Below are positions 5,402 through 37,345 of a stretch of 64,000 nt of DNA, piece after piece. The DNA comes from Vulcanimicrobiota bacterium. Lineage in GTDB: Bacteria > Vulcanimicrobiota > Vulcanimicrobiia > Eremiobacterales > Eremiobacteraceae. The notes beneath the pieces were generated by a model that ran no database searches, was not told the DNA's origin, and worked only from the letters and a program-made list of their open reading frames with translations. Position numbers and translations under genes: made by a program. The stretch spans positions 13,724 to 77,723 of the forward strand of contig CAWDVP010000008.1 of NCBI GenBank assembly GCA_963805945.1. The letters run 5' to 3'. Position 1 is the stretch's first letter; each line of letters begins with the position of its first letter.

Positions 5402-5540
5402 TGGGCATTCGTTTCGCGTGGAGTCGGCCAGCCCCTATGCGCTGTGTTTCCCAGGGCGCCCCGCAGGCCGCGTCGAACGCCAATCCGTTCCGACGCTGAT
5501 CGCAATCCCCGCCTCTTTATGATGAAAGGCTCGCTTCCGA

Positions 5541-12190: not shown

Positions 12191-13648
12191 CTAGATCTTC
12201 TGCAGCTCTCGCACTCGGCCGGTGAGCTCTTCATGGATGCCCGCGGGATAGCGGCCGGTGAAGCAGCCCATGCAGAACTCCTTGCGCTCGCGCGCGGTGG
12301 ACGCGACGAGGCCCTCTTCGCTCAAGTACGCGAGCGAATCGGCGTTGATGGTCGTCCGGATCTCGGGCACCGAATGGTTGGCCGCGATGAGCTCTTCGTA
12401 CGTTGCCGTGTCCACGCCCAGGAAGCACGGATGGCGCATCGGCGGACAGGTGACCCGGACGTGCACCTCCGTCGCGCCGGCCTTGCGCAGCATGGCGACG
12501 ATCTGCTTCGTGGTGGTGCCGCGCACGATCGAATCGTCGACGAGCACGACCCGCTTGCCCGCGAGATTGGCGTGCAGCGGGTTGAACTTCAGCTTGACGC
12601 CCTGCACGCGCATGCGGTGATCCGGATTGATGAAGGTGCGCCCGATGTAGCGGTTCTTCATCAAGCCTTCGATGTACGGGATGCCGGATTCGTCCGCGTA
12701 GCCGATCGCCGCCGCGGTCGCTGAGTCGGGCACGCCCATGACGACGTCGGCTTCGACCGGGCTCTCCTTGGCGACGTTGCGACCCATCTGATAGCGCGCG
12801 AGATACAATTCGCGCCCCGCGACCTGCGAGTCGGGGCGGGAGAAATAGATGTATTCGAAGATGCAGTTCGCCGGCTTCTCGTCCGTCTTGATCATGCGGC
12901 TGCGCATGCCGTCCTTGTCGATGGTGATGATCTCGCCCGGCAGGATCTCGCGGACGTACTCCGCGCCGATGGTCGCAAGCGCGCAGGATTCCGAGGCCAG
13001 CGCCCAACCCGAGCCGTACTTGCCCAGGCACAGCGGGCGGATGCCCCATGGATCGCGGAAGCCGAAGAGCTGTTTCTCGGTCGCGAGCACGATCGAGAAC
13101 GCGCCGATGCACTGGCGCATCGCCGCCTCGATGCGCTCTTCCATCGAGCCCTCGGGGGCGTTGGCGATGAGCCGCGCCATGATGTCCGAGTCCGAGTTGC
13201 TCGTGGGCACGAGCGTGTCGTGGAGCTGGTCGCGCAGCTCGTCGGTGTTCACCAGATTGCCGTTGTGCGCAAGCGCGAACTGCCCGAGGGCGCTGTCCGA
13301 CAGCAGCGGCTGCGCGTTGTAGATGACCGACGAGCCGCTGGTGGAGTAGCGCGTGTGCCCCACCGACAAGTAGCCCGGCAGTTCGGCGAGCGTCTCTTCG
13401 GTGAAGATCTGGGAGATGAGCCCCATGTCTTTATGACAGCGCATCGTGTAGCCGTCGGAGACCGCGATACCGGCGCTCTCCTGACCGCGATGCTGGAGCG
13501 AGTAGAGCGCGAAGAACGTGGACCGGGCGACGTCTTCGCCGGGTGCGAAGATGCCGCACACGCCGCACGCGTCGCGGATCGCGTCGTCGCCGCTCTTGGC
13601 CTGCCAGCCGTGGTAGGTCGGGGTGGGAGGCGCGTCGCTCATCGTCAC
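12191..13648 (-). CDS. purF: Amidophosphoribosyltransferase
   Basis: Propeptide then CGVCG, LQHRGQESAGI, GHTRYSTSG, AHNGNL, VVLVDDSIVRGTT, CMGCFTGRYP. Confidence 0.97.
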   Translation of the reverse strand: MTMSDAPPTPTYHGWQAKSGDDAIRDACGVCGIFAPGEDVARSTFFALYSLQHRGQESAGIAVSDGYTMRCHKDMGLISQIFTEETLAELPGYLSVGHTRYSTSGSSVIYNAQPLLSDSALGQFALAHNGNLVNTDELRDQLHDTLVPTSNSDSDIMARLIANAPEGSMEERIEAAMRQCIGAFSIVLATEKQLFGFRDPWGIRPLCLGKYGSGWALASESCALATIGAEYVREILPGEIITIDKDGMRSRMIKTDEKPANCIFEYIYFSRPDSQVAGRELYLARYQMGRNVAKESPVEADVVMGVPDSATAAAIGYADESGIPYIEGLMKNRYIGRTFINPDHRMRVQGVKLKFNPLHANLAGKRVVLVDDSIVRGTTTKQIVAMLRKAGATEVHVRVTCPPMRHPCFLGVDTATYEELIAANHSVPEIRTTINADSLAYLSEEGLVASTARERKEFCMGCFTGRYPAGIHEELTGRVRELQKI

Positions 13649-13680: not shown

Positions 13681-14973
13681 CTATGCCCCGCGCTCGTCCC
13701 GGACCCGGTCTGCGATGTCGCCTCGATAGCGCAGCCGCGAGCCCTCCGGCACGCGTGCGACATAGGCGGCACAGGCGGCGTATGCGCGGCCCCGCGCCTC
13801 TCCTATCGTGTCGCCGACCGCGGTGATGGTCAAGACCCGGCCGCCGCTTGCTCGCACCGTCTGGCCGTCGAGCGCCGACCCGCCCCAAAAGGCCGCCACG
13901 TGGGGCTCCGCGGAGGGCAGCGGCAGCCGGTCCATCGGGTCCGAGTGTTCCGGATAGCGCTCGGAGGTCAGCACGACGCCGACGCAGGCCGACTTCGAGA
14001 ATGTGGGCGCGGGCGCTTTGCCGTCCGCCAGTGCGATCGAATGGAGCAGCTCGAAGAGGTCGGATTCGAGCCGCGGCAGGACGACCTGGGTCTCCGGATC
14101 GCCGAAGCGGGCGTTGAACTCGAGCACGAATGGCCCGCGCTTGGTGATCATCAGGCCTGCGTACAGACAACCCCGGTAGTCGATGCCGTCGGCCGCCAGG
14201 CCGGCGCGCACCGGCTCGATGATGTGCTTGGCGACGCGATTCATGAGGTCGCCGCCGGCGACGTCCGGCGCGGGCGAGTACGCCCCCATGCCGCCGGTGT
14301 TGGCGCCCTCGTCGCCGTCGCGGGCGCGCTTGTAATCGCACGCCGGCGCGAGGACGTACGCGCGCGCGCCGTCGCACACCGCCATGACGGAGACCTCTTT
14401 GCCTTCGAGGCGCTCCTCGAGGACGAGCGTGGTGCCGCCGCCTGGCAGCGAGCGTTCGCCATACCAGCGCTCGATGGTCGGTTTGGCTTCTTCCGCTGAA
14501 TCAAAGACGACGACGCCCTTGCCGGCGGCAAGGCCGTCGGCTTTGACGACGATGCCGCCTTGCCAGTTGCGCAGGAAGCGTTCGGCCTGTTTGCGGTCGT
14601 GCGCGACCTTGAACGCAGCGGTGGGGATGCCCCAGCGCAGCATGCACTGCTTGGCGAACGCCTTGCTCGACTCGAGCCGCGCGCCGCTGCGCCCCGGCCC
14701 GAACGTCGCGATCCCCGCTTGGCGCAGCGTGTCGGCGACGCCCGCCGCCAATGCCGCTTCCGGCCCGATCACCGCGAGGTCGACCGCTTCTTCTACGGCA
14801 CGGTTGGTGATGGCGTGCGTGTCCGTAGCGGAGATGTCGGACCAATTCGTGCCGAGCAGCGCCGTGCCCGCATTGCCCGGCGCGGCGACGATCGCTTCGA
14901 CCTGCGGCGACTGCGCCAATTTCCATGCGAGCGCGTGTTCACGCGCTCCTGATCCGACGACGAGTACCTTCAC
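13681..14973 (-). CDS. purD: Phosphoribosylamine-glycine ligase
   Basis: KVLVVGSGAREHALAW, VVKADGLAAGKGV, NTGGMGAYSP, EFNARFGDPE. Confidence 0.97.
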   Translation of the reverse strand: MKVLVVGSGAREHALAWKLAQSPQVEAIVAAPGNAGTALLGTNWSDISATDTHAITNRAVEEAVDLAVIGPEAALAAGVADTLRQAGIATFGPGRSGARLESSKAFAKQCMLRWGIPTAAFKVAHDRKQAERFLRNWQGGIVVKADGLAAGKGVVVFDSAEEAKPTIERWYGERSLPGGGTTLVLEERLEGKEVSVMAVCDGARAYVLAPACDYKRARDGDEGANTGGMGAYSPAPDVAGGDLMNRVAKHIIEPVRAGLAADGIDYRGCLYAGLMITKRGPFVLEFNARFGDPETQVVLPRLESDLFELLHSIALADGKAPAPTFSKSACVGVVLTSERYPEHSDPMDRLPLPSAEPHVAAFWGGSALDGQTVRASGGRVLTITAVGDTIGEARGRAYAACAAYVARVPEGSRLRYRGDIADRVRDERGA

Positions 14974-15011
14974 GACGAGGCGTTTATGGCTGCGGCGCGA
15001 ACTGACCTCTC

Positions 15012-15587
15012 GTGAGCCTCGAGCTTTGGAGCACCATCGCTTCCGTTGGCACGTTCGTCGTGATCACCGCGACGGCGATCGCCGCCGTCATCCAACTTAT
15101 CCACATCCGGAGCGGCAACCAGATCGCGATCCTCAATGACTTTCGCATCGCGACGGAAGATCCAGAATTCCGCGCAGCGATGGAGTTCATCTACACGCTG
15201 CCGTCCAAGGTCGGCGATCGCGAGTTCCGCGCCTTGCTCGAACGCGACACGTTGCCGGTGGAGTTCTACCCGATTCATCGAGTGGGGCGTCTCTACGAGC
15301 TGTTCGGATTCTACGTCAATCGCGGCATACTTGATGCCGACATGGTCTGCGACCTGTGGGCACCCGTCATCCAAGGGGTGTGGGACAACATGGCGGACAC
15401 CATCGTCGTGATGCGGCGTTCGCGCGGGCCCGAACTCTTGGAGAACTTCGAATACCTCGCCCTCTTGAGCGCGCGCTATCTCAAACGCAACCAGAGCGTC
15501 TACCCGAAGAACTTGCCCCGCATCGCGCACGCCGATAAATGGGCGGCGCAGGATGCGGCCACGCCGTCTACTCCCACTCGATCGTAG
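15012..15587 (+). CDS. Hypothetical membrane-anchored protein (DUF4760-like), paralog of 57705-58271
   Basis: N-terminal TM ([20 protein letters not shown]), RSGNQI, C-terminal LENFEYLA; shared with the 57705 ORF. Confidence 0.75.
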
Positions 15588-17106: not shown

Positions 17107-18238
17107 CAGGTGCAGACGCTTCCAAGCGTGCCGGCGTCGCGCGCCATGACGACTTCCTTCGCGATGCGTTCACCGACAGAGATCTCGCGACCCCAACGGT
17201 AGGCGGAATATGGTGTGTACTTCGTGCCGGGCGAACCCGGGATGCGCAGGCTGACGTCGTACACCACGAACGACTTCGGCGGCCCCGCTGCGATGACGCA
17301 CTGCAGCGCGAACGGCCCGATGATGCCCGGCGGCCGCGCGGCGCGCGCCGCCGCGACGAAACGCTCGCCCATGTCGAAGGCCTGCTCGAGCATGGATTCG
17401 GTGAGCGTCGCCGCGATGTGGCCCGCCTCTTCCATCGAGGGCATGAACGCGCCGCCGAGCGACGCCTGCTCGATCGCCAGCAGATTCCTGGCCCCGTCGA
17501 CGTCGGTCTGACGCCGCGTGTCCGTGCCGAGCAGCTCGAGCTCGCCGGACAGCGGCGAATAGAAGAAATTCAGATTGATGCTCGGGCCGAGCACGTACTC
17601 CTCGAGCACCGCGCCCGCGAGGCCTTGCTCGCTGATCACACCCGCGGCGAGGAGCGTCTGGGAACGGCGTTTGTACTGCTCCGGCGAAGCGGCGACGAAG
17701 AAGGCGCGCTCGAATGTCACCTTGGCGTGCGGCGCCTTGATCAGCGTCAGGCCCGCGATCTCGTCGGGCGAGCGGAGCCGCCGCGGAAAACGGATGCCGG
17801 CCGCTTCAAGCAGCTTGTACTGGTTGTCGGGCTCGTCGCGCTCCTCCGCGCGCAGCAGGCGGCGCGAGCCGAAGAACGGCACGCGCATGCCGCGTTCGAT
17901 CTCGTCGTAGCTGTGGCGCTGGCGTGCGTACACCTCGAATGATCGGTTCGGCACGAAGATCGCGTTGCGCTCGAGCAGCTCTTTCTGGACGTCGGCGCCA
18001 GGATGTCGGCGAAGTGCTCCACCAGCAGCGTCTCGTCGACGCAGCCGGTGCCATCGGGTCGCGCGGCGTAATGTTTGGTATAGGTGCGCTCGCGGCCGCG
18101 CATGCCGACGACGAGATTGCGCAGGCCCTCGCGCTTCGCGCCGAGGCAGACGTCGAGCGCGGAATGGCTGCCGATGCAGCAGAGGGTGAGCGAGGCGAGG
18201 TCGTAACCGGCGAGGACGTCCGCGACGCCCTCACTCAA
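17106..18238 (-). CDS. purP: PurP-like ATP-grasp protein (paralog 2); apparent frameshift near 17995
   Basis: [17 protein letters not shown] | [60 protein letters not shown]. Confidence 0.85.
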
Positions 18239-19356
18239 TTCGCCGGGACTCCCGGTCCTAGGATGCGCGCCGGCTTCGCGGCCAGCTTGCCGTTGCCGTC
18301 GTCGAAGGTGAGCAGGCTGCCCTGATCGAGCACGAGCGACAGGCTGTTGGTGAGCAGCGCGTTCTTGATCTCGCGCGCGATGCGGCGTCCGGTGGACATC
18401 GGCTCGGTGTAGTTGAGGTACGAATACGGCGAACCGTCGATGAAGAGATTCGTGCCGGCCACGATGCGCGCGGAGATCTCCATGAGGTAGAACTCCGCCT
18501 CCGGGGTCACGATCGTCTCGAGGCAGAACGCGCCGAACAGCCCGCGGTCCGGGCACAGCTCGCGGCTCACGCGCACGACCGCCTCGCCCATGTGGAAGGC
18601 CTCGGCGAGCAGCGACTCGCGCAAGCTGATGGGCTGGTTGCCGATGACGACGTAGCTGGGCTGGATATCCCAGCCCTCCTGGCTCGCCGACGGGATGCGT
18701 CCGAGCGAGTCGACGTTGCTCTCGTAGCGCCGGTCCATGGACATGATCTCGAGCTTGCCGGTGAGCGGCGAATAGAAATAGTGGATGTACACTGGCACGC
18801 CGATGATGTATTCCTGCATGATGTACTTCTGCTCGACGAGATGCGCGGCGCGCGCGTGGAAATCGTCCGCGTTCTTGACGAAGAGATAGCCCTTGCCGCC
18901 ATGGGCGCCGTAGAGCTTCACGATGACCGGCCGGTCGATCTCGCTCGCCTTGGTGAACTGGCGCGGCATCTTCAGGCCTGCCGTGAGCAGCCAGTCGCGC
19001 TGGCGCATTCGATCGGCTTCGAGATCCAGCACGGCCTTGTTGCCGAAGTACGGCGTCGTCATCGCCTTGTGCTGTTCGAGCGAGAGATAGGCGACGAACG
19101 AGCCGTGCGGCACGAGCACGACTTTGCGCTGGTTGAGCTGATCTTCGACCTTGGGGAAATCGCTGTAACGCGCGATGACCATGACTTCATCGACGAAGCT
19201 GAAGCTCGAGTACAGGCTCTCGTTCTGCGGCGTGGTGACGGCGAGGGTGTGGAAGCCTTCGTCCTTGGCGCCCTTGAGGATCTGCAGCGCGGAGTGGCTG
19301 CCGAGCGTGGCGATGGTGTACAGCGCGGGGAGCTGGGAGGACGATTTGCGTGCCAT
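18235..19356 (-). CDS. purP: Formate-dependent FAICAR synthetase PurP (paralog 1)
   Basis: IATLGSHSALQILKGAKDEGF, VPHGSFVAY, HYFYSPL, DRRYESNVD, LRESLL, EISARIVAGTN, MSTGRRIAREIK. Confidence 0.92.
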   Translation of the reverse strand: MARKSSSQLPALYTIATLGSHSALQILKGAKDEGFHTLAVTTPQNESLYSSFSFVDEVMVIARYSDFPKVEDQLNQRKVVLVPHGSFVAYLSLEQHKAMTTPYFGNKAVLDLEADRMRQRDWLLTAGLKMPRQFTKASEIDRPVIVKLYGAHGGKGYLFVKNADDFHARAAHLVEQKYIMQEYIIGVPVYIHYFYSPLTGKLEIMSMDRRYESNVDSLGRIPSASQEGWDIQPSYVVIGNQPISLRESLLAEAFHMGEAVVRVSRELCPDRGLFGAFCLETIVTPEAEFYLMEISARIVAGTNLFIDGSPYSYLNYTEPMSTGRRIAREIKNALLTNSLSLVLDQGSLLTFDDGNGKLAAKPARILGPGVPAN

Positions 19357-19396
19357 TATTGCGTGTTCTCCTTCGCTCCGGCGGCCCGAATTCCCC

Positions 19397-19900
19397 TCAC
19401 GCCTCCACTGCGACGCGCGCCGGCATCTCCCGGACCGCGAACGTCTGCGAGTGCGGGTTGGCGAGCAGTTCACGACACGCCCATTCGAGGCGCTCGCGCG
19501 GCGCCGGTCCGCCGCTCTCGTACAGCCGCCACGCGACGGCGCGCGACAGCGAGCGCAGCTGCGCCATGCCGAACGGCCCCTGCAGCAGCGAGAGCAGGCC
19601 CGTCGTGTCGTCGTCGCGATCCTCCACGACCGCTTCGAACCCGGTATCGTCATCCGATCGCCGCGCCGCTCCGGTCGTCGAGAGCGAAAGCCGGTGCTTG
19701 TTCGGGTTGAACAGCACTTCGGCGTGCGCGATGCCGCGGGCAAGCGCTTCTGGACTGTCCTCCTCGGCGTTCAAGCGCAGGATCTCCGAGCGCTCCACCC
19801 GCGCGAGCGCATCGTAGCCAAGCTGCCGCAGCGCGACGAGCACCGTGTACGCGGTGTTGTCCGGCATGCGCAGGTCGATCGCGACTTCGACGTCGCTCAT
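19397..19900 (-). CDS. purS: PurS-like FGAM synthase subunit, double length (167 aa)
   Basis: Two PurS-like halves ending in LFNPNKH and LLANPHSQ; located in the purL/purQ cluster. Confidence 0.6.
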   Translation of the reverse strand: MSDVEVAIDLRMPDNTAYTVLVALRQLGYDALARVERSEILRLNAEEDSPEALARGIAHAEVLFNPNKHRLSLSTTGAARRSDDDTGFEAVVEDRDDDTTGLLSLLQGPFGMAQLRSLSRAVAWRLYESGGPAPRERLEWACRELLANPHSQTFAVREMPARVAVEA

Positions 19901-20470: not shown

Positions 20471-21219
20471 GCGGGCGCTCCGCCCGCTCGCGCAAGAAAC
20501 GCGCCATGCAGCTGAAGATCGCGTGCCCGGCGACCATCTGGTTCGGGTCGCCCCCGCGCAGCTCGGGCCGCCGGAACAAGACGTTGAGCGCCCATGCGGC
20601 CCGCTCCGGATGCGGCATGAGCGCCAAGACGTTGCCCCGCTCGTTGCAGATGCCTGCGGCGCGGCGCATCGCCCCGTTGGGCGCGGCACCCGCGTAGCGA
20701 AGGACGATGCGCCCGTGCTCTTCGAGATCGTCGAAGGTCGGTCGCCTCGCCGGTGAAGCGGCCTTCGCCGTGCGCCAGCGCCATGGTCATCGCCGTGCCG
20801 GGCGCGAGACCCGCGGTGAACGCGCAACGCTCCGGCTCCCGATCGGTCACGACCTCGACGAGCTGCGCTTGGAAGTGGTGCGAGGGCAGGTTGTGCGCGA
20901 TCGCCACGCGTCCGAGCATGCCGCTCTCCGCGACGATCTGCGCGCCGTTGCACAGCCCGAGCACGAGCTTGCCGCGCTCCGCTTCTTCCTTTATCACCGC
21001 GACGATCTCGCTCTTGGCCGCGATGGCGCCGGCGCGCACGCGATCCTCGTGCGCGAACCCGCCGGCGATCACGTAGCCGTCGAAGTCGCGCAAGGCGTTT
21101 GGATTCTCCGCCCACCAGAACAGGCGCGCGTCGATGCCGGCGTCGCGGCACGCATCGACCGTCTCGGTCTCGGAGTTCGTGCCGGGGAAGACGATGACGG
21201 CGACGCCTGGCTCAGGCAT
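20463..21219 (-). CDS. purQ: FGAM synthase glutaminase subunit; apparent frameshifts near 20690-20740
   Basis: VIVFPGTNSE, GGFAHEDRVRAG, LGLCNGAQI, AHGEGRF | GNVLALMPHPER. Confidence 0.93.
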
Positions 21220-23613
21220 AGAGCTTCTTCAGCGGCTCCGACCACGCGGCCCGCGCGTCGCCGAGCGGTACGTCACAGGCGCCGGCGACGGTGATGTTCG
21301 GGCCGCCGGTCACACCGAGGCGCAGCGCTCGTGCGGGCACGGCGGCGCAGATCGCTTCGAAGGCGGCGACCTTATCGCGCGCCACTTCGACGACGAAGCC
21401 GGGCTGCTCGCCGAACAGCGCCGCCTGCAGGTCGACATCGCGCGCCCATTCGCGCGGGTCGACGAGACGCGCCCCGAGGGCGCCGTCGGCATCGCCGCCC
21501 AAACACATCTCCGCGACGCAGGCGAGCAGCCCGCCGTCCGAGATGTCGTGCGCTGCGCTGATGACGCCCTCCCGTATCCCGTTGACGACCGCGCAGAATC
21601 GAGGCGTTCGCCTCGGCGTAGTCGAGCGTCGGCAGGTCGGACGCATCGCCGGCAGCGCCGCCGGTCGCCGCTGCCAGCACCGATCCGGCGAGCTTGTCCG
21701 TGCGAGCGCCGAACAGGAAGAGCAGTCGATCCGGCGCGGTGATCTGCATGGTGGCGACGCGGGCGACGTCGTCGACGCGGCCGATGCAGGCGACGATCGC
21801 CGAGGGTGCGATCGCGCGACCCGCCGACGACTCGTTGTACAGACTCACGTTGCCGCTCACGAACGGCAGCGGCTCGCCCGGCGCGTTGAGCTGGAGCGAT
21901 GTCGCCGCTTCCGCGAGTCCCTCGATGCCGTCGACGAGTTGGCGATAGGCGATCGGATCCTCGGGATTGCCGTAGTTCAGGCAATCGGTGAGACCGATCG
22001 GCTGCGCTCCGACTGCCGCGACGTTGCGCGCGGACTCGACGACCGCGTGCGCCGCCGCGAGCTTCGCGCTGAGGGCGCCGTAGCGGGGATTGCCGTCGAC
22101 CGAGAGCGCGATGCCTGCGCGCTCGCCGCGCTTGATGATGAAGACGCCGGCGTCCGCATAGCCAGACGGGATGACCGTGGCGCCGCGCACGAACATATCG
22201 TAATGGGTGATGAGCGGCCGCCGGCTGCACACGTCCAGATGGGAGAGAACCGCCAGCAACGCTCGACTGAAGTCGACCGCTCCATTTCCACGGCGTATGG
22301 AGCGGTCGGATTTATCCGACCGGAGCTCTATCGGCGGCGCCGCTTTCCGCTCCGCCACGATCGGGCCTGCGAGCACGTCGATCGGCAGGTCGATCAACTT
22401 TTCGCCGGCGGCGCGCACGACGTAGCGTTTCGCCTCCGTCACCGTGCCGATGACCGCGGCGCGCGCGTCGGCGGCGATCTCCGGCAGCGTGAAGTGCTGG
22501 TTGTAGATCTGGAGCAGCCGTCGGCGTGAACGATGGCGGCACCGCCCACAGCATGCGCTCTTGCGTCTCCGCGCAGGCGATGACGAAGGGCGGCAGCCCG
22601 CTCGCCGCCTGCGGCACTTTGTCGATGTCGATCGCGGCCCCGAATCCGCCGGCGTTGCTCAGCTCACACGAGCTGCCCATGATGCCGCCGGCGCCGAGGT
22701 CCTTGAAACCGACCTGCAGCCCGAGCCGCTCGATCTCCGCGAACACCGCGTATGACGCGCGCATGATAACGCTCTTGAGGAACGGATCGGGGACCTGGAC
22801 CGCGCTCTTGTTGGCCTGCGCTTCCGCCGCGTCGAGCACCAGCGAGGCGAACGCGGCGCCGCCGAAGCCCGATGCGTCGGTCGCCTTGCCGACGAGCACG
22901 AGATCGTATCCGGCGCCGCCGGCCGGCACGCGGCTATGAAGGATGCGGTCGGCGCGCACGATGCCGAGCGCCACCACGTTCACCAGGCAATTGTCGGTGA
23001 ACGACTCGTTGAAGTAGACGTCGCCGGCGATGTTCGGCACGCCGACAGCGTTGCCGTACCCGCCGATCCCGTCCACCGCGGCCGCCGCGACGTATGCGGC
23101 ATGCGAGCCGGGCGTCGGCAGGCCGAAGCGCAGCGGATCGGCGCTCGCCACGACCTCGGCGCCCATGCACAACACATCGCGCAGGATGCCGCCGACGCCG
23201 GTCGCCGCTCCCTCGAACGGCACGACCTGCGATGGATGGTTGTGGCTCTCGTGCGCCACGACGACGCCGTAGTCCACGCCGTCGAGGGTGGCCGCGCGCA
23301 AAATGCCGGCATCTTCGCCGACGCCGACGAGCACGTCGGCGCTGCGCACCGGCAGCGCTTTGAGCAACGGCCGCGAGCTCTTATACGAGCAATGCTCGCT
23401 CCACTGGATCGCGAACGCGTGGGCTTCGGCGCGCGTCGGATCGCGTCCGATGCGCGCTGCGATGGAGCGCAGTTCTTCCGCCGAAAGCGCGAGCGCCTCG
23501 CGGCGTGCGAGGCGCTTGAGGTCCTCGTCCGAGGCGCCGGTGATCGAAAGCGGCTCCGCCGACAAGGAGACTGATGGAGCGGTCGATGCCGTTCGACCGT
23601 CCTTTTCTCTCAC
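21212..23613 (-). CDS. purL: FGAM synthase synthetase subunit (small-type PurL); apparent frameshifts near 22515 and 21600
   Basis: WSEHCSYKSS, ESHNHPS, GAATGVGGILRD, DLGAGG, ETQERM | TDCLNYGNPE, SGNVSLYN | AHDISDGGL. Confidence 0.95.
22261..22323. repeat. REP-like family A pair inside the purL coding sequence
   Basis: gctcgac-tgaa-gtcgaccgCTCCat ttccacggcgt atGGAGcggtcgga-ttta-tccgaccgg; translated RSDKSDRSIRRGNGAVDFSR. Confidence 0.8.
23574..23602. repeat. REP-like family A copy in the purL 5' end
   Basis: atGGAGcggtcga-tgccgt-tcgaccgtcc; translated DGRTASTAP. Confidence 0.75.
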
Positions 23614-24881
23614 GCGCCGGTCTTACCGTTGGGCGGCGCGTTGAGCCGTGCGTCCGATGCGATGACGTTGTTGCGGCTGCGATACTGCGAGACGAGCACC
23701 CTGCCGTAGAGCACGGTGTCGTCGACCGCGAGGATCTTCGCCGCCGCGAGCGCCGCGTTCTCGGGCTCGAGCACGACCGTGCTCGCCACGCCCGAGGGCA
23801 GGTGCAGGCTCGAAAGCACTTCCATGCCGCCCCAATTCGAGCCGATGACCGGACACGCGATGACCGGGTTGGCGGTCGCCGCGTCCACGAACGCGGAGAG
23901 CGCATTGCTCCGCCCGGCGATGGTGATATAGACGACGCGACCCAACGTGCTGTCGGTCTGCTGGATGCGTGTCAGCGCGAACACCGGCGTCTTGTGCGCC
24001 GAGGCGACATGCTTGGTGTTGGGCACGCCGAGCGCGGAGAGCGCCTTGGCGATGCGCTCCGCGTGCGCCGCGTCCGACGCCGAGCCCATCATGATCGACA
24101 CGAAACCACCGCTGCTCTTCTGGAAACGCGCGACCCGCTCGGCGACCTCTTCGTACTTGTCTTTGACGTCGCTCAGATCGCTGTCTTTGGGCGCGCTCAT
24201 GTTGCGGTAGACCTGCTTGTCGAGCATGCGCGTCTGGTCGCCCGCCGGCCAGATCCGCCACGAGTCGTTGTCGATGACGTCGGCGAGCAGGATCTCGCTG
24301 CCGCCGCCGGCGCTCGGGATGCGGCCGAACTCCACCTTGAGGTCGACGAGCTGGACGTCTTGCTGCTTCCACGCATGGGCGAGGATCTCGAACACGAGCC
24401 GGGCTTGGTCGCTCATCTCGACGATTTCCGCCGGCGTGGCGATCTTCTCGGCGACGATCTGCTCGGCGGTGTACTGCGGGTCGTGGCGCGCGTCGTCTTT
24501 GAAGAAATACTCGACGAGGCGCGGCGCGAAGATCGTGCCTTGCGCCACGCCCGGGTTGCGCTTGAGGTAGGAGCCGGCCGCGACGCCGCGCACCACCACC
24601 TCGATCGGGATCATCTCGCATCGGCGTACGACCATCTCGTTGTCGTCGGCGTCTTCGCCGCCGCTCAAGTAGTGGGTCGGCAAGCCGCATGCGTTGAGCA
24701 GGCGGAAGATCCGCGCCGTGGTGAGCGCCGCGAGGCGGCCCTTGCCGGTGATGGTATTGCGTTTGGCGCCGTCGCCGGCGGTGATGCTGTCCTGCGACGA
24801 CACGATCACCGCGTCGGGCTGATCCGGGTGCTGGTAGAGGACCTTCGTCTTGCCCCGGGCGACTTCGACTCCCTTATGCAT
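23610..24881 (-). CDS. purC-purE: Bifunctional SAICAR synthetase / AIR carboxylase (PAICS-like PurC-PurE fusion)
   Basis: GKTKVLY, ITAGDG, CEMIPIEVVVR, DLKVEFG, LADVIDNDSWRIWP, then MMGSASD, ASAHKTP, AGRSNAL, PVIACP, SSLHLPSG. Confidence 0.93.
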   Translation of the reverse strand: MHKGVEVARGKTKVLYQHPDQPDAVIVSSQDSITAGDGAKRNTITGKGRLAALTTARIFRLLNACGLPTHYLSGGEDADDNEMVVRRCEMIPIEVVVRGVAAGSYLKRNPGVAQGTIFAPRLVEYFFKDDARHDPQYTAEQIVAEKIATPAEIVEMSDQARLVFEILAHAWKQQDVQLVDLKVEFGRIPSAGGGSEILLADVIDNDSWRIWPAGDQTRMLDKQVYRNMSAPKDSDLSDVKDKYEEVAERVARFQKSSGGFVSIMMGSASDAAHAERIAKALSALGVPNTKHVASAHKTPVFALTRIQQTDSTLGRVVYITIAGRSNALSAFVDAATANPVIACPVIGSNWGGMEVLSSLHLPSGVASTVVLEPENAALAAAKILAVDDTVLYGRVLVSQYRSRNNVIASDARLNAPPNGKTGA

Positions 24882-26275
24882 GCGTTGCTTTCTCCATCGC
24901 GCGGACTTTCGCCGCGAAGAGGTGTGCGCGCTCGGCGGCGAGGCCGACGTGCGCCGCGGGTTCTAGGAGTGCTTTCATCTCCGCCGGTTTGAGGTGGACG
25001 GTGAACGCCTCATCCTTTGACAGCATCTCCGGCAGCGGGTTTTTCTCGTCCTTCTCTATCGCTTCCCAGGCCTTCATCGAGGCTTCCCGCAGCTTCTCGT
25101 GCAGCGCCTGCCGGTCGGCGCCGCGCCGCGCCGCCGCCATGAGCACCGCCTCGGTCGCGGCGAACGGGCCGAAGGTGGCGAGGTTCGCGGCGATCCGATT
25201 CTTGTCGACCCGTAGGCCGCTCATCACCTTGCTCGCCAGCGAGACGATCTCGTCGGCGGCCAAAAAGCTCTCCGCCAGCACGAAGCGGCGGTTCGCGGAA
25301 TCGTCGAGCGTGCGTTCGAGCAGGTTGTCCGCGGCGTTCTGCCACGTCACCATCGCGTTGGCGGCGATCGGGCCGCGCGAGCGAGCAGATGCGCTCGCAC
25401 ATGATGGGATTGCGCTTGAACGGCATCGCCGACGAGCCGACCTGTTTGGCCTCGAAGGGCTCGCCTACTTCGCCGAACGGGCTGCTCGCCAGCACGCGCA
25501 CGTCGAAGGCGAATTTGCTCGCGGTCGCGGCGAGCGCGGCGACGTTGGCCACGACGATATAATCGAGGCGCCGCGAGTACGTCTGCCCTGTGATGAGCGA
25601 CGCGGTCAGCCCGAACGCCGACATGACGTCGCGTTCGACCTGGTCGGGCGTGACGTCCGAGCCCTTGAGCAGCGCCGCGTACGACGCAGAAGTGCCCACC
25701 GCGCCGCGCAGCCCTTTGCTCGGCAGCCACGCGGCGAGGCATTTCAGATTCTCGTAGTCGAGATAGAGATCGTGCGCCCACAGGCTCATGCGATAGCCGA
25801 GCGTCGTGGGCTCGGCCGCCTGCAGATGCGTGTACGCCATGCACGGCAGGTCGGCGTATTTCTCGATCTGCCCGGCGAAGACATCGAGCAGCGAGCGCAG
25901 CCCGTCGCTGAGCATCGAAAGCGCCTGCTTCAGGCGCGCGGTCTCGACGTTGTCCTCGACGTCCATGGAGGTCGCGCCGAGGTGCAGCTTGCCGCCGCCG
26001 AGCTTGGCCTGCCTCGCGTAGACGCGCAGTTCGGCCATGAGGTCGTGATGGATCTCTTTTTCGATCTCGTGGGCTGCCGCCAGATCCACCGCGTCCACGT
26101 GGCGGCGCAGGTCCGCCAGCTCTTCCTCGGTGACCAGGCCCGCCTTGGCCTGCGCGGTCGCCAGCTCGAGCCAGAGCCGGCGCCACATGCGGCGTTTGGT
26201 CTCCTCGGAGAACAGTTCGCGCATAGCGGGACGGCCGTATCGCCAGGAAAACGGTGAGGAATACGCTGTTGTCAC
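24874..26275 (-). CDS. purB: Adenylosuccinate lyase; apparent frameshift near 25375
   Basis: YSSPFSWRYG, HLGATSMD, YTHLQAAEPTTLG, QVGSSAMPFKRNP | LLERTLDDSANRR. Confidence 0.95.
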
Positions 26276-26386: not shown

Positions 26387-27413
26387 CTATTTCCGCGCCG
26401 TGAGGCGCACGATCACTTCTTCGAGCGCTTGGTCAGCCTGACGCCGGCCCGTGATCGAACGCTCGAGCGCCGCCATCGTGACGTCGACACGCTCTTTCAA
26501 TTCTTTCTTCGACAGGCCGCGTCCGACGCCCAAGAGCTTGTTGACGCGCCACGCGTTCTGACCGCTCGCGGTGGCGTATTCATTGCCGCGCGCGCCGTTG
26601 TGCAGTTCCCAGATGATCTGCTGCTCGCCGGCGAGCCACACTAGCGGGCCGATCGCCGCGCTCGGATCGGTCGTGAGCTCCTTCGCGAGCTTGAGCGCGA
26701 GATCGGTTTTGCCGTCGTTGATCGCGCCGGCGAGGTCCCAGAACTTCACATCGCTGCTCGGCAGCGCGTACTCGCGCACGTCCGCCTCCTTGATGTCCTT
26801 CTTCAGCAGCGACAGCAGGTCGATGGCGTTCTTGATCTCGGCGACGTTCTCGAGCGAGGCGAGCGCGTTCACCGCGCCGGCGTCCATCGCCACCTTGATC
26901 TGCGCGGCATAGTCCTCGATGTACTTCTTGCAGCCCGCCGCGTTGAGCGTCACGTCGATGACGATCGAATCGTCGCAGGCCTTGGCGAATGCCGCCGCCT
27001 CGTCCATCGGCTTGCGTCCTTGCGGCCTGGAAGGCTTGCCGCTGTGGTCGATGAGCAGCAGCGCCTGCTCGGGCGTGTCTTCCGCTGCGGAGACGATCTC
27101 GTCGCGGTCTTCCTTCTTGAGATCGATGGTGCCGCGCACCACCACGACGCGGCGCGCGGCGAGGAACGGCATCGCGGCGGTCTTCTCGGCGATCGCGCCC
27201 AAGCCGCCCGCGCCGCGCGCATCCACGACGTCGACGTTGAGCGCGCGCATCGATGCATCGGGCACTGCCGCGGCGAGATCAGCCGTGCCACGACCTCGTC
27301 CGCGAGGATCGTCTCCTTGCCCGCGATCACCACGAGCCGAGGCGGCCAGTGCGGCTGGGCTGGCGGCGAACTGCAGAGTAGCCGATCTTGCCCGCCGGCT
27401 TCTTCGCAGGCAC
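26387..27413 (-). CDS. holA: DNA polymerase III delta subunit; apparent frameshifts near 27290-27335
   Basis: [52 protein letters not shown], the HolA pattern. Confidence 0.75.
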
Positions 27414-27414
27414 C

Positions 27415-28506
27415 TTAGGGACGGACCGCCGCGCGGATCGGCTCGCGCGCGAGCATCTCCGCGATGGCGACGCCGAACGGCGGCCGCAGGTCGCCGAACT
27501 CGGTCGCGAAGGCGCTGATATAGACGAGCAGGCGTCACGTCGAACGACGGATTGGCGACCGGCGCGTCCGGCGGCGCGATCGGCGTGCCGCGCACTTGCA
27601 GCACTTCTTTCGCATCGCGCTCCTCGATCGGGATATCGTCGCCTGTCGCCATGCTCGCGTCGAACGTCGAACGCGGCGCCGCGACGTAAAAGGGTATGCC
27701 GTGCTCGCGTGCGAGCACCGCGAGACCGTAGCTGCCGATCTTGTTCGCGGTGTCGCCGTTGGCGGCGATGCGGTCGGCGCCCACGATGACGGCTCCGATC
27801 TCGCCGCGGCGCATGAAGTAGGCCGCCATGCGCGTCGGTGATGAGCGTGAACGGGATGCCGTCGCCGAGCAGCTCGTACGTGGTGAGCCGCGCGCCCTGC
27901 AGCTGCGGGCGCGTCTCGCCCACGTACACCGCGCGCAGCTTGCCCGCGCGCCAAGCGGAGCGGATGACGCCGAGCGCCGTGCCGTAACCGCCGGTGGCGA
28001 AGTCGCCGGTATTGCAATGGGTGAGCACTTGCACGCCGTCGGGCAGCAGCGCCTCGCCGGCGGCGCCGATGCGGCGGCATGCCTCGATATCGTCAGCGTG
28101 CAGCGCCGCGGCCGCGACCTGCAGCTGTGCGGCGACGGTCTTGGCCGACGCACCGCCGTTGATGTTGCGCTTGGCCTCGTTGAGCAATTCGTTGACCGCC
28201 CAAGGCAGGTTGACCGCGGTCGGCCGCGCCGACGCGAGCGTCTGCGCCGCGTCGGAGAGCATGGCGAGGAAATGGTCCGGGCTATCGGCTTTTTGCGCCG
28301 CGTCGAGCGCCGCGATCGCCAGGCCGTATGCCGCCTGCGATGCCGATGGCCGGCGCGCCGCGCACGCGCATCTCGCGGATCGCGTTGACGACCGCCGCCG
28401 GCGAGTCGAGCGACAGCACCTCGACCGCGTCGGGCAGTTTGGTCTGATCGATGAGGCGCAGGATTGCCGGCTCGTAGGCGATGTGCGGCGGGCGCTGCGG
28501 GGTCAT
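27415..28506 (-). CDS. mtnA: S-methyl-5-thioribose-1-phosphate isomerase; several apparent frameshifts
   Basis: [18 protein letters not shown] | [27 protein letters not shown] | [25 protein letters not shown]. Confidence 0.93.
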
Positions 28507-29815
28507 GCGCGCGCGAACTCCTGGTCGGCGACGCTGAGCGCCTCGCCGATGATGCGCGCCGCCTCGTCCGCCTGCGCGATGGTGACGACGAGCGGCGGTT
28601 GGATCCGCAGCGTGCTCGCATACAGCCCGCCGCGCCCGATGAGCAGGCCTTTGTCTTTGCACAGGTTGAGGACGCGCTCTGCCGCTGCCCCGGCCGGCTC
28701 TTTGGTGGCGCGATTGATGACGAGTTCCACGCCGATCATGAGCCCGCGCCCGCGCACCTCGCCGACGATCGGATGACGCGCGGCAAGCGCGCGCAGCGAC
28801 GCCATGAGGTGCGCGCCGACCTTGCCGGCGTTGGCCGTCAGGTTCTCTTCTTCTACCACCTCGAGCGCGGCGACCGCGGCGCGCGAGGACAGCGGATTGC
28901 CGCCGAACGTGTTGATATGCGGTCCTTGATATGCGTCGGCGATCTCCCGGCGCGCGATCACCACCGAGATCGGCAGTCCGTTGCCCAGGCCCTTCGCCGA
29001 GGTGATGATGTCCGGCGTGACGCCCCAATCGGTGATCCCGAACATGTTCGAGCCGAGCCGGCCCCATGCCGTCTGCACTTCGTCGGCGATGAAGAGGATG
29101 CCGTGGCGGTCGAGGATCTCCTTGACCTTCGGGTAGTACTCGGGCGGCGGCGTGATGATGCCGCCGACGCCTTGGATCGTCTCGGCGAAGTAACCGGCGA
29201 CGTGGCCAGACGTCTCGGTCTTGATGATGTTCTCGATGGCGTCCGCGCACGCGATCTCGCACGATGGATAGGTGAGGTTGAGCGGGCAGCGATAGCAGTA
29301 CGCGTTGGGCGCGAACACGATCTTGCTCGGCTCGCCGCCGAAGTTGCGCCACGCCGCTAAGCCGGTGATGCCCACCGTCCACGCGGAGCGGCCGTGGTAG
29401 GCGTGGGCGAGCGCGATGAACTCCGAATGTTTGGTGAAGTGGCGGGCCAGCACGCGCCGCCAGTTCATTCGCCTCGGTGCCGGAGTTGCCGATGAAGACC
29501 TTGTCCAGGCCGGGCGGCGAGATCTCGGAGAGCTTCTCCGCCAGATCGAGCATCGGCTCGTTCAAGTACAAGCGTCGAGGTGTGGACGATCTTGTCCACC
29601 TGATCGTGGACGGCGGCCTTCACCTTCGGGTGGTTGTGGCCGGCGACGAGCACCGCGATGCCGGCGAAGAAGTCGAGATAGCGGCGGCCTTCGTCGTCGG
29701 TGACATACGCGCCGTCACCCGAGACCAACGTCAGCGGCTCCGGATAGTAGGTCTTGGCGCAGTCCATGAGATACGCGGCCTTGCGTGCTGCGTTGCGGTT
29801 CGCTACTTTCGCCAT
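28503..29815 (-). CDS. Class III PLP aminotransferase (AGXT2/beta-alanine transaminase-like); apparent frameshifts near 29570 and 29465
   Basis: [15 protein letters not shown] | NSGTEANE | [50 protein letters not shown]. Confidence 0.9.
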
Positions 29816-30758: not shown

Positions 30759-33700
30759 CTAGATCTTGTGGAAGCCCAGCAGGCGGCGCAGCACGCCCGT
30801 GAAGGTGAGCAGGGCGAAGGGTATGAGCAGCCATCCGGCCGCACGCAGCAGGCCGGCGGACGAGGCGGCGGTGACGGGCGAACCCGGGATGCCGCACCCG
30901 GAGACGCGCCACGACGTGAGCAGCGCAGGATCGAGCGACGCGTAGGTCGCGATGCCGAGCGCCGCGGCGTCGTCGAGCGGCGCGCGCTCGTCGCACGCAG
31001 CCGTTGTAGCGGTCGAATTTATTCGACCGTCCGCCGGCACCGCTGAGCCCGGCACGAATGCGAAGATGAGGAACGCGATAAGCACCGGCGCGAGCAGCCA
31101 CGCGAGCATGCGCCACGGCCGCACGCCGTAGCCCGGGATCGCGCGCAGCACGCGGTCGCCCAGCAAGCGCAACAGATCCGCCCAGCAGGCCGCGGTCCAC
31201 GGCGGATTGCGGAACGGCCGGATCGCGTCTCCCTCGAGTTCGCGTCGCATGTAGAACGCGTCGGCCGCCATGCGGGCCTGCGCGCGCGGCGAGTGCGCGG
31301 GACCGCGCTGTCCTTTGTCGACGGCGCGCGCCGGGAACACCGCATCGTCGCTCGGCGCTTGCGACGCGGACTGCAGCACGACGAAATGACCGCCGCGCAG
31401 GTCGAGGGTGAGGCCATGGTCGCTCGAACGCGCCGGCGCCGGCGCGGGCGTGAGTTCGCCGTTGCCGCGCGCAGGCCGCCCCGAGACTGCTTGCGCGCGC
31501 ACGCTCTTCGCCGCGGCGCGCTCGCCGATGCGCAGGCCGCGGAAATGCATCCAGCGCAGATCGAGCGGCGCCTCGAACGTCGCATCGGAGAACACCGCGT
31601 CGCGGCCGACGCGGCTGCCGACAAAACGGGTCTCGGCGGCGAAACTCGCGCGCTCGCACAGCAGGTCTGAGGTCACGTCCGCACCATCGAAGATCGCTCG
31701 GCGGGCGAACGCTGCGCCGCTGCAATCGAGCTGTCCGCCGATGTGTGCGGCGTCGAAGCGCGCGTCGCCGCCGAAGCGAGCACCCGAGCACAGCATGTCC
31801 GACTGCACGCTTGCGCCTTCGAAGTCGGCCGGCCCATCGAAGCGCGTCGTGCGCAGCTGCAGCCCCTCGCCGAACGTCGCACCTGAGAATTCCGCGCGCG
31901 CGGCGAACGTGGCATCGTCGAAGCTCGAGTCTTTGCCTGCGCTGATCCTGTGGAACAGGGTGTCGCCGCCGAACGTCGCGCCACTCGCGTCGACGCCGCC
32001 GGCGATGCCGACGTCGTTGCAACGCACTTCGCCCTGCAGTCGTGCCGCCCGCATGCCGAGCGCTCCCCGCACCTCTGCGCCGTCGAACAACGCGGCGCGC
32101 GCGAAGACCGCCTTATCGAAGGACGCGCTGCCGCCGATACGAGCGCCGCGGAAATCTGCATCCGCATCAAATGCGGCAGCGCCGCATTCCAACGAGCCGC
32201 CGGTCTGCACGGCGCCGAACTGCGCCGCGCCGGTGAAATGGGATCCCGTCAGGGTGGCGCCGGCGCCGATGCGCGCCGCGCCGAAATTGGCCTCACGGGC
32301 GAAAGTGGCGCTCGTGCCTGCGACGCCGCCACCGACGACGAGCGAGCGGAACGTCGCGGGGCCATCGAAGCGAGCGCCATCGATCTTCAGATCGCCGCCG
32401 ACCTTGGCGTGCGCAAAGGTCGCGTCCTCGCAGAAATGCGCTTTGCTGGCGAGCAGCGCGCCCTTGCAGGAAAGGCTCGCGAAGCGCGCCGCGCGCGCGA
32501 GGGTCGCGCCGCTCAGGTCCACGTCGCCGCCGCTCTCGGCGGCGCTCAGATCGATCTCGCCGCGGCACTCGACGTTGGCAGCGGCGATCGCGCCGGCGCG
32601 CAGGCTCGGCATCGCGGTGGCGCCCGCGAAAACCGTCCAGGCGAAGCACGCCCGCCCGTCCACGCGGACGTTCGGCAGAGTCAGCTGCGGCGGCGAAGGT
32701 CGCGCGCGTGCAGTCGAGCGAGCCCAGGCGCGCGTTGGCAAAGGTGACAGGACCATGGAACGCCGCGTGCGTGAAGTCGGCTTCGCCGGCGACGCGCAAT
32801 TCGCTCAGGTCGGCGCCGCGGTCGAACGAGGCGGACTCGCACGACAGCGCGCCGCCGACGTCGCAGCCGCGCAGATCCGCGCCTCGCCTTGAATTTCGCG
32901 TCCTCGAGGTTCAGGTCCGCGCCGACGCCCATGCCCGCGAAACTCACGTCGCGCTCGAACACCGATTGCAGGCACAGCACGTTGCGCGCCATCGCGCGCC
33001 TCTTTGAGCGACACGGTCGCGGCGAACACGATGTTCGACAGCGTGAGCTGCGCCAGCTGGGCGCCTTCGAACGCCACCTCGCCGCCAAAGGACGCGCCGG
33101 TGGCGATGACCGCCTCCGTGACGCGGATCGACGGGAACAGCGCGCGTCGCCGGAAGTGCGACTCCGAAAGATCGAGCTGGCCGCCGATCTGCGCGCGCTC
33201 GAGCCGCACGTCGCCGTCGAAGGCCGCGCGCTTGAGGCTCGCATGCCGCACGACCGAGAGGTCGATGAGGGCGACGTCGCCGGCGACGAGCGCGCCCTCG
33301 AGGATGAGGTCGCCGCCGATCTGCAGTTCTTGGCACTCGAACGGTCCATGGATCTTCAGCGCGTCGCCCGTGAGCGAGCCGCCGATCCTGGCGCCTTTGG
33401 CGCGCAGCGCGTCCGTCGACGTCGGCGTCATGCAGGCTCAGTGCGCCGCCGATCGCGACACCCGCGAGATCGAGTTCGCCGCTGAACTTCACGCCCGCGA
33501 AACTGACGTCGCCTTCGCCGCGCATGCCGGCGAGGATCACGCGGCCGCCGAACGCCGTGCCGTCGAAGCGGACCGCCTGCAAGAAGCGCGCATCGCCGAG
33601 TGAGATGCCCGCGGCGCGCGAATTGGTGATTGCGAACGAAGCCGGCACGTAGCGTCCGCTCAAGTCGAGGTCGCCCGCGATCACCGCGTTGTCGATGTCG

Positions 33701-33840
33701 ACCGCAAGGCCGAGGCGGACCGCCTCGAGGATCCAGTCGGCGCGGACGACGCGCGCGGCTTCGCCGGCCTCGCCAGGAAGATGCAGCGGCGTGCCGGCGA
33801 GCAGCGCCTGGAGGTTGCTATCGCCGACGACGTCCATCAA
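30759..33840 (-). CDS. Large pentapeptide-repeat protein with C-terminal membrane domain; several apparent frameshifts
   Basis: Repeated A.F.G...F..A.IGG...(F/L) units across ORFs 32944-33840, 32805-33431 and 30759-32756; C-terminal GYGVRPWR plus TM helices. Confidence 0.75.
31005..31032. repeat. REP-like family A copy inside the pentapeptide-repeat gene
   Basis: tGTAGcggtcgaa-ttta-ttcgaccgtcc; translated DGRINSTAT. Confidence 0.8.
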
Positions 33841-34340: not shown

Positions 34341-34349
34341 CGAGGCGCT

Positions 34350-37231: not shown

Positions 37232-37253
37232 GAACGCCCGTTTTCTGCGCAAC

Positions 37254-37339: not shown

Positions 37340-37345
37340 GACGCG

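Follow-up and report, generated by a model that had tools for sequence, protein, structure and literature searches.

Does the purine operon of a bacterium encode a working counterpart of the bifunctional animal enzyme PAICS, and does that enzyme spare its host the need for PurK? The question is raised by a 64,000-nucleotide stretch of DNA (hereafter the window) from a soil-dwelling member of the Eremiobacterota (WPS-2), also named Vulcanimicrobiota (contig CAWDVP010000008.1), where one open reading frame (ORF) on the minus strand, which we call purCE, joins PurC, the synthetase of SAICAR (succinylaminoimidazolecarboxamide ribonucleotide), to PurE, the carboxylase of AIR (5-aminoimidazole ribonucleotide). 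An earlier note on this DNA had described a single ORF of 423 residues with PurC followed by PurE, and the ORF call together with both Pfam domains bears that description out. Judged from its sequence, purCE is a real and probably active gene whose family is already in databases, and not a new kind of system. We consider it likely that its product is a bifunctional PAICS-type enzyme with a class II PurE domain, which would catalyze two consecutive steps of de novo purine synthesis.

The purCE fusion and its likeness to animal PAICS

The ORF runs from an ATG start codon to a TGA stop codon and is made up of the following parts.

23610..24881, minus strand: purCE, 423-residue PurC-PurE(class II) fusion ORF of PAICS type (ORF call, Pfam, PDB-sequence matches)
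24138..24863, minus strand: SAICAR synthetase (PurC) domain, residues 7-248 (Pfam PF01259 SAICAR_synt, E 2.4e-62)
24102..24137, minus strand: linker between the two Pfam domains, residues 249-260 (Pfam bounds, human PAICS alignment)
23643..24101, minus strand: class II PurE (AIR carboxylase) domain, residues 261-413 (TIGR01162 261-413; PF00731 261-397)

The Pfam AIRC match (PF00731, residues 261-397) has an E value of 6.7e-32, and NCBIfam models for both halves find the protein as well (purC TIGR00081, E 6.2e-42; purE TIGR01162, E 7.7e-34). Seven of the eight motifs quoted in the earlier note stand literally in the protein; the eighth, WG...SSLHLPSG, has five and not three residues between WG and SSLHLPSG. 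Motif positions, in purCE residues, are listed here.

88-98: CEMIPIEVVVR
107-112: KRNPGV
126-136: FFKDDA..DPQ
199-215: LADVIDNDSWRIWP.GD
265-270: MGSASD
294-297: SAHK
322-328: AGRSN.L (AGRSNAL)
339-344: PVIACP
349-364: WG, five residues, SSLHLPSG

A phmmer search of PDB sequences with the purCE protein returned 50 distinct sequences at E<=0.001. Inspection of the ranking reveals human PAICS (2h31) at the top, with E 3.1e-90 for query residues 4-398 against chain residues 10-405, followed by Bombyx PAICS (4ja0) with E 1.1e-89 for query residues 7-413; after these two come PurC proteins without a fused partner and the Treponema denticola class II PurE (3rg8). The full-length match to human PAICS confirms the resemblance to the vertebrate enzyme that had earlier been noted, and at the level of sequence chance cannot account for so strong a likeness. 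Across the domain junction the human and purCE sequences align continuously, with a one-residue gap. The two domain matches are separated by 8-15 residues in the ten nearest full-length representatives of PurC-then-PurE order, four vertebrate-like ones included, and 34-61 residues in the other group of PurC-then-PurE fusions (P0165-P0263). The architecture of purCE is thus that of PAICS, namely PurC then PurE on one polypeptide with a short linker. Human and Bombyx PAICS share with it the domain order, the short linker, a near-equal length (425 versus 423 residues) and the catalytic motifs GKTK, KDD..DP, DNDSWR.WP, GS.SD, SAHK and AGRSN. Unlike animal PAICS, purCE belongs to a bacterial operon in which stop and start codons overlap, and its PurE loops are SAHKTP and AGRSNALS, the forms found in stand-alone PurEs of prokaryotes, where the animal enzyme has SAHKG(P/T) and AGRSNGLG.

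An AlphaFold2 model of the purCE protein, built from a 35-sequence alignment (A2), reached a mean predicted local distance difference test score (pLDDT) of 91.6 and a predicted template-modelling score (pTM) of 0.90. Foldseek against the PDB placed human PAICS (6yb8_A) first, with template-modelling (TM) scores of 0.90/0.91 and a root-mean-square deviation of 2.3 Å over 420 columns at 40% identity, and Bombyx PAICS next (TM 0.88/0.92); the E domain matched T. denticola PurE with a TM score of 0.94 by target at 39% identity. The predicted model therefore has the PAICS fold and the PAICS placement of the two domains relative to one another. PAICS structures, released in 2007 and 2013 and hence before AlphaFold2, were probably in its training set, so that the predicted domain arrangement is not independent evidence.

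Inspection of the neighboring genes raises the question of whether the fusion could be an artefact. Relative to locus L008, from Candidatus Eremiobacter antarcticus, whose contig name suggests short-read data, these neighbors contain at least seven frame changes: one each in purB (near 25370), purQ (near 20736) and purP (near 17997), and two each in the mtnA (near 27830 and 28336) and aminotransferase genes (near 29455 and 29571). Either the window assembly is indel-rich or these genes are decaying; the purCE ORF itself is sound. It is collinear in one frame over residues 1-423 with its 425-residue L008 homologue, and relatives agree with it at every motif despite the frame changes next door. 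A protein database search (8000 candidates scored) gave 3595 matches at E<=1e-10, and both domains are present in 119 of the 120 best. Where the best 120 bear taxon names, these point to Eremiobacterota or to bins titled accordingly (Eremiobacteraceae, Tumulicola, Baltobacteraceae); the exceptions are a handful marked Binatus, Acidoferrales or Dormibacteraeota and a handful given just as 'bacterium'. Many such proteins already carry JGI names that state their bifunctional nature; several bear NCBI names that give 'phosphoribosylaminoimidazolesuccinocarboxamide synthase' or 'AIR carboxylase family protein' alone.

We also scanned the GTDB set, with a single genome for each species, using patterns drawn from an alignment (A1); this gave at least 599 stretches, and kept the best 80 of 580 confirmed loci (L001-L080). 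By title, 69 of the 80 are Eremiobacterota/Vulcanimicrobiota or genera thereof, four are just 'bacterium', and seven name other phyla (Acidiferrales, Acidoferrum, Proteobacteria, Verrucomicrobiia); the last seven are probably mislabelled bins, because their sequences and gene order fall inside the same clades. The order purB-purCE-purL-purQ-purP-purP-guaA-purD is kept in all 80 wherever the flank is long enough. The fusion lies between purB and purL in every one of these loci, which come from independent assemblies, and so it is not an assembly artefact, the outcome that the earlier note had named as fatal to its reading. That purCE stems from a misassembly, from an indel that fused two genes or from eukaryotic contamination, possibilities to which the frame changes of the neighbors might lend color, is scarcely conceivable: the database matches, the 80 loci and the collinearity with L008 refute it, the local G+C content of 0.67-0.69 is that of the rest of the window, and a six-residue insert characteristic of animal PAICS is missing.

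Class and active sites of the PurE domain

Tranchimand et al. (2011) are said to have defined the PurE classes by their SAHK and AGRSN loops. We compared the corresponding motifs across 82 E domains, and the main patterns are these.

E. coli PurE (class I): SAHRTP, AGGAAHLP, SIVQMPRG
33 sampled stand-alone PurEs of about 160 residues nearest the window: SAHK.., AGRSNALS, SS.R.P.G (SN in one)
Window purCE E domain: SAHKTP, AGRSNALS, SSLHLPSG
Eukaryote-like PAICS: SAHKG(P/T), AGRSNGLG, SSLR.PSG

The hallmarks of class I, which are SAHR and AGGAAHL loops and a partner PurK, are absent from purCE, where the motifs differ and no PurK lies nearby. The Arg-to-Lys switch after the histidine corresponds to R51 in a class I enzyme and K304 in the human one, as given in part of PMC10484210. 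Among stand-alone PurEs of solved structure, phmmer ranks T. denticola class II PurE (3rg8) best at E 6.6e-30, with weaker scores for class I (best structure E 7.7e-19; E. coli E 2.7e-11). A neighbor-joining tree of the 82 E domains (153 columns, rooted on E. coli PurE; like all our trees, with Kimura distances and 100 bootstraps) unites the window's clade, the stand-alone class II PurEs and the PurC-then-PurE fusions at 92% bootstrap, a split that parts them from E. coli class I and from reverse-order fusions, with full class I motifs represented in the tree by E. coli PurE and the P0228 E domain only. Support for all PurC-then-PurE fusions as one clade is 7%. By motifs and by tree, then, the E domain of purCE is class II, as had been proposed, and the grouping with class I enzymes that was to speak against this does not occur.

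Two known systems frame this assignment. Stand-alone class II PurEs (T. denticola 3rg8; the 'AIR carboxylase family' of Chloroflexota and Bathyarchaeota) have class II motifs identical to those of purCE but are about 160 residues long with no PurC attached; seven of the 33 sampled carry names, namely Chloroflexota, Anaerolineae or Bathyarchaeota. Class II PurE appears in print, in the portions of PMC9376930 and PMC3261824 available to us, for the bacterium T. denticola and for Archaeoglobus. The E. coli set of PurK, class I PurE and separate PurC covers the same step, from AIR through carboxyaminoimidazole ribonucleotide (CAIR) to SAICAR, with the same folds. In contrast to purCE, which has no PurK nearby, the E. 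coli route has SAHRTP and AGGAAHLP motifs and uses ATP and bicarbonate through PurK.

The active sites were mapped by hand onto residues that the consulted part of PMC9376930 lists for human PAICS. For the AIR carboxylase site (M272-D277, S301-K304, V328-L335), 15 of 18 residues are identical in purCE, H296 and K297 included; the differences, from human to purCE, are T275 to A268, V328 to I321 and G334 to A327. The catalytic histidine of purCE is H296. Its human equivalent, H303, is described in the same part of that paper as the general base, essential and universally conserved in both classes, with H303Y abolishing complementation. The listed residues of the SAICAR synthetase site are likewise kept by hand count, comprising GKTK 10-13, E94, V96, F126, K128, D130, D134, K182, K222 and R226, with human N43, which is D37 in purCE, as the sole exception.

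From these correspondences a reaction sequence can be proposed. The class II PurE domain would carboxylate AIR at C4 directly with CO2, using neither ATP nor PurK. His296 would act as the general base that takes the C4 proton, by analogy with human H303 as that residue is described in PMC9376930, while Ser294, Lys297, the MGSASD loop and the AGRSNAL loop would hold the substrate. The PurC domain would then ligate aspartate to CAIR with ATP to give SAICAR, from which PurB, encoded just upstream, would release fumarate. Translation of purCE would be coupled to that of its neighbors purB (upstream) and purL (downstream), and the operon would also supply PurF, PurD, PurQ, two PurP-type proteins and GuaA. 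The PurP-type pair probably stands in for the folate-dependent half of PurH. The activities of purCE, its oligomeric state and any channelling are what we infer.

Decay of the PurE domain in Eremiobacterota and the question of PurK

To place purCE within its phylum, we aligned 81 fusion proteins, those of the window and of L001-L080. Only the window's own clade, 12 of the 81 (the window, L001-L010 and L034; 74-83% identity to the window, named members being Eremiobacteraceae or Eremiobacter), keeps the catalytic motifs: GS..D and SAHKTP stand in 12 of 12, AGRSNALS in 11 of 12 (AGRSDALS in L004), and SSL.LP(S/G)G wherever the sequence reaches, L010 ending at a contig end. L011, at 60% identity to the window, has Leu at the position of the catalytic histidine. 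Its group (L011; P0087, P0088, P0090-P0092), at 56-60% identity, keeps most PurE loops; the database relatives of L011 have Ser or Gln at the histidine position, and P0088 keeps His. These substitutions suggest, on sequence grounds, recent or repeated loss of activity.

The remaining 68 proteins, of Baltobacterales type (L012-L080 except L034; representatives P0094-P0122), have a degenerate PurE-like domain. They are 386-410 residues long and 47-54% identical to the window, and include Baltobacteraceae, Tumulicola, Cybelea, Aquilonibacter and others by name. Neither the GS..D loop nor the AGRSN loop survives in any of the 68, a deletion of about 24 residues over CP...SSL.LPSG is common to all of them, and the histidine column is lost in 67, with L079 having His there and nothing else. 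These fusions share with purCE the operon position, the PurC clade and 61% C-domain identity, in contrast to an E domain only 35% identical to that of the window's clade. C-domain and full-length trees each unite the three Eremiobacterota groups at 100% and join the L011 group with the 68 at 100%, a topology which implies that the fusion is ancestral and that one branch saw the decay of its E domain. In the window's clade, mean pairwise identity is 78.1% for the C domain and 75.7% for the E domain (55 pairs), compared with 79.3% and 59.0% in the 68 (2278 pairs); such even conservation of the two domains is an argument for a working E domain in the window's clade.

The degenerate domain nevertheless retains structure. 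At least 90% conservation is seen in 38 of its E-domain columns among the 68. A model of one such relative has a pLDDT of 68.8, with block means of 82-93 over residues 261-350, and keeps the strand-helix order and beta-alpha core of PurE. Foldseek with this model of middling quality, which gives a lead only, returned PAICS first (TM 0.63) and PurE on the E part with E of about 1e-5. To judge by sequence, the degenerate domain looks like a pseudo-enzyme domain, perhaps a scaffold for oligomerization.

With such a domain in most of the phylum, CAIR must come from elsewhere in those genomes. The earlier note had also stated that the cluster has no purK, and this extends to the whole window: Pfam finds no PurK-type domain among 88 window ORFs (32 plus 56, the latter chosen by third-position G+C), and tblastn with E. 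coli PurK finds nothing in the 64 kb at E<=1e-3, with a single 15-residue match (E 1.9) when the threshold is relaxed to E<=10. Neither the window nor the 10 kb around the fusion in the 80 loci holds a PurK-like or second PurE-like sequence, and at least the genomes with degenerate domains should therefore have their second route elsewhere than within 10 kb of the operon. That the organism of the window has no PurK at all and depends on a PurK-free route is a reasonable expectation, held with less assurance than the bifunctional nature of the enzyme.

Several observations weigh against these two readings and deserve to be set out together. The NCBIfam equivalog scores are under the curated cut-offs (143.9 versus 189.9 bits for purC, 116.5 versus 149.6 for purE), from which it follows that the protein has drifted away from the bacterial families that these models describe. 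The many frame changes of the neighbors carry some risk for single-residue calls in this copy, and the domain arrangement of the model may have been learned from PAICS entries, which makes it a matter of consistency and not of proof. Full-text literature searching found no biochemical datum for any bacterial PAICS-type member, and no paper on a bacterial PAICS-type fusion or on the Eremiobacterota purine pathway, though subscription journals may contain one. The search for purK covered 64 kb of this genome and 10 kb to either side in relatives. Sister lineages have lost the catalytic histidine or whole active-site loops, which means that the fusion can persist without AIR-carboxylase activity and that another CAIR route exists in the phylum; such a second route in relatives weakens any automatic step from a purK-free window to a purK-free organism.

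This last point leads to the rival explanation with the greatest weight, that the enzyme is active and the organism is still not PurK-independent, with a stand-alone purE, with or without purK, encoded elsewhere and the fused domain redundant or conditional. It concerns the pathway and not the enzyme, and so overlaps with the explanation that we prefer. The common ancestor may have had the other CAIR source that 68 of the 81 fusions and L011 now need, and 64 kb of the present genome gives such a gene ample room to lie outside. We nonetheless regard this as unlikely: no PurK-like or second PurE-like sequence turned up in the regions searched, conservation in the window's clade is as high for the E domain as for the C domain, as expected of a working enzyme, and Archaeoglobi with class II-like PurE have no PurK according to the part of PMC3261824 seen.

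The two other rivals question the chemistry itself. That the PurE domain of purCE is catalytically silent and serves as an oligomerization core for PurC, as apparently in most of the phylum, gains from the dead-domain forms being the majority there, since these remain conserved (59% mean pairwise identity) and their PurE-like core is predicted to persist; it is improbable for purCE, in which every catalytic motif is intact and the E domain is no more relaxed than the C domain. Still more improbable is an E domain acting as a mutase of N5-carboxyaminoimidazole ribonucleotide (class I chemistry), fed by a distant PurK or by non-enzymatic formation of that substrate. Organisms with ambiguous PurE class are noted in the portion of PMC3261824 at hand, but the Lys in place of Arg after the histidine, AGRSNAL in place of AGGAAHL, the bootstrap support for the class II grouping and the much better score against T. 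denticola class II than against any class I structure all contradict a mutase. The reading of purCE as an active, bifunctional PAICS-type enzyme is the one that we carry forward.

Relatives, origin and operon of purCE

To understand how purCE relates to other fusions, its C domain (residues 1-252) and E domain (residues 257-423) were compared separately. Labels for P0121-P0270 rest on sequence features, with some names from a separate protein search.

Unnamed bacterial-looking fusions P0123 and P0124: C domain 51% and 48%, E domain 44-48% identity
Eukaryote-like P0126: C domain 45.5%, E domain 39%
Vertebrate-like representatives: C domain 42-44%, E domain 36-39%
Best stand-alone PurCs examined: C domain 40-45%
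Stand-alone class II PurEs: E domain 48-55%

The earlier note had set purCE apart from typical bacterial PurE. This holds for the fusion architecture, which is that of PAICS, and fails for the E domain, whose nearest relatives outside the phylum are the stand-alone prokaryotic class II PurEs and not the vertebrate-like proteins. A search with P0124 found the family in records named Armatimonadota (P0392, P0413) and Patescibacteria, including Woykebacteria (P0402, P0410), and also matched insect 'multifunctional protein ADE2' records and other insect proteins (P0412, P0414, P0416, P0418). Support for clades in a full-length neighbor-joining tree (55 sequences, 403 columns, rooted on six long-linker fusions) was as follows.

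All Eremiobacterota: 100% bootstrap
Eremiobacterota with P0124 and P0391: 78%
Eukaryote-like without P0132: 67%
All bacterial short-linker fusions: 46%
Short-linker fusions, bacteria and eukaryotes together, versus long-linker fusions: 100%

A bearing on the origin of animal PAICS, which had been suggested, is plausible in that bacterial and eukaryotic short-linker fusions form one group at 100%; the branching of bacteria and eukaryotes within it has 46-67% only. A six-residue PurC insert is present in seven of seven animal sequences (four named insects, three labelled vertebrate-like), in one EukProt sequence and in three further eukaryote-like representatives, in contrast to purCE and all 16 Eremiobacterota sequences of the full-length alignment, which do not have it. 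Recent transfer from an animal is rejected on account of the domain identities, this missing insert and the full-length tree, and purCE is, by these sequence comparisons, a bacterial member of the PAICS-like family and not a recent import.

Other arrangements of the same domains are known. Of the 150 best representatives at 50% identity, 41 are PurC-then-PurE fusions, five are reverse-order and 104 are PurC-only. The reverse-order PurE-then-PurC fusions (P0145, P0153, P0160, P0171, P0228) are 416-441 residues long with class-I-like SAHR motifs, and together with the long-linker fusions they indicate that PurC and PurE were joined several times independently. One Atlas cluster holds 266 giant-virus (Nucleocytoviricota) proteins of about 642 residues with SAICAR_synt, Formyl_trans_N and AIRC domains. 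A more speculative history, which we offer as doubtful, is that the PAICS fusion arose once in prokaryotes, was kept in Eremiobacterota, Armatimonadota and Patescibacteria and passed to eukaryotes already fused, with the CO2-dependent, PurK-free step kept, within Eremiobacterota, only in the window's clade (Eremiobacterales type) and a dead scaffold in the rest, where CAIR would be made by some other route.

The operon around purCE is a minus-strand cluster of purF, purD, a 186-residue ORF, guaA, two PurP-type genes, purQ, purL, purCE and purB. Beyond purB lie an mtnA-like gene and holA, an aminotransferase, pentapeptide-repeat ORFs and rib genes, and a second pur block stands near the start of the window. 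Individual genes are listed here.

3767-4654, minus strand: purN-like (Formyl_trans_N), second pur block
4396-5434, minus strand: purM, read as two ORFs (AIRS and AIRS_C), second pur block
12191-13648, minus strand: purF (Pfam)
13681-14973, minus strand: purD (Pfam)
14970-15530, minus strand: 186-residue ORF between purD and guaA
15568-17106, minus strand: guaA (Pfam)
17109..19407, minus strand: two PurP-type genes of the formate-dependent FAICAR (formamidoimidazolecarboxamide ribonucleotide) synthetase family (DUF1246 and DUF1297)
20493..21219, minus strand: purQ, formylglycinamidine ribonucleotide (FGAM) synthase I (GATase_5; TIGR01737 on two ORFs; frame -2 to -3)
21372..23613, minus strand: purL, FGAM synthase II, adjoining purCE downstream (FGAR-AT linker, AIRS, AIRS_C)
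24874..26275, minus strand: purB, adenylosuccinate lyase, adjoining purCE upstream (Lyase_1 and ADSL_C on two ORFs)

The purB stop overlaps the start of purCE by 8 nt (ATGCATAA), and the GTG start of purL overlaps the purCE stop by 4 nt (GTGA); these overlaps suggest that purB, purCE and purL are probably translated as a unit. The frame change in purB goes from frame -1 to -2 relative to L008, and purL is read as two ORFs, 22312-23613 and 21372-22442. The PurP-type genes occupy about 18238-19407 and about 17109-18295, the latter with its one frame change; the NCBIfam match to formate--phosphoribosylaminoimidazolecarboxamide ligase has E 9e-115 and is under the curated cut-off. The PurP-type pair recurs in the 80 related loci wherever the flank reaches. 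For the 186-residue ORF, no Pfam family at E<=1e-5 and no NCBIfam family was found. Neither purS nor an IMP cyclohydrolase was found in the window, and Pfam shows no PurH-type domain among the 88 ORFs. At gathering score, Rfam yields no family in the window besides two tRNAs, and no FMN, purine or ZTP riboswitch.

Further features of the window lie apart from the purine genes. At 26387-28621 (minus strand), an ORF of 744 residues matches holA (DNA polymerase III delta) in full and also has a stretch resembling mtnA (methylthioribose-1-phosphate isomerase); it is probably two genes that frame errors have merged. Three overlapping pentapeptide-repeat ORFs at 30759-33840 (minus strand), which separate the aminotransferase gene from ribH, may be fragments of a single long repeat protein interrupted by frame changes. 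Beyond the pur cluster, a riboflavin gene set at 33837-37345 (minus strand) comprises ribH, ribBA, a lumazine-binding/RibD_C ORF and a deaminase ORF. The G+C content is 0.66-0.70 up to about 52 kb and 0.58-0.65 beyond; between 52000 and 64000 are a FecR/DUF6600 protein, a methyladenine glycosylase, a tetrahydrodipicolinate succinyltransferase-like gene and a Dyp-type peroxidase, and adjacent tRNA-Glu(CTC) and tRNA-Gln(CTG) genes stand at 60009-60161 (minus strand).

Direct AIR carboxylase and fused PurCE are treated as essentially eukaryotic in published text, as far as the portions consulted go. A phylum-wide bacterial PAICS-type gene with relatives in two further phyla supplies outgroups for the origin of animal PAICS, and bacterial purCE offers a simple model for PAICS enzymology and channelling. 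PurP is treated as an archaeal signature in the portion of PMC6486802 consulted, which makes two PurP copies in the pur operon of a bacterial phylum worthy of attention. Because of the names in databases, pathway reconstructions for Eremiobacterota could wrongly score purE or purK as missing or present. Within the phylum itself, the purCE genes form a natural series that leads from an active to a dead PurE domain.

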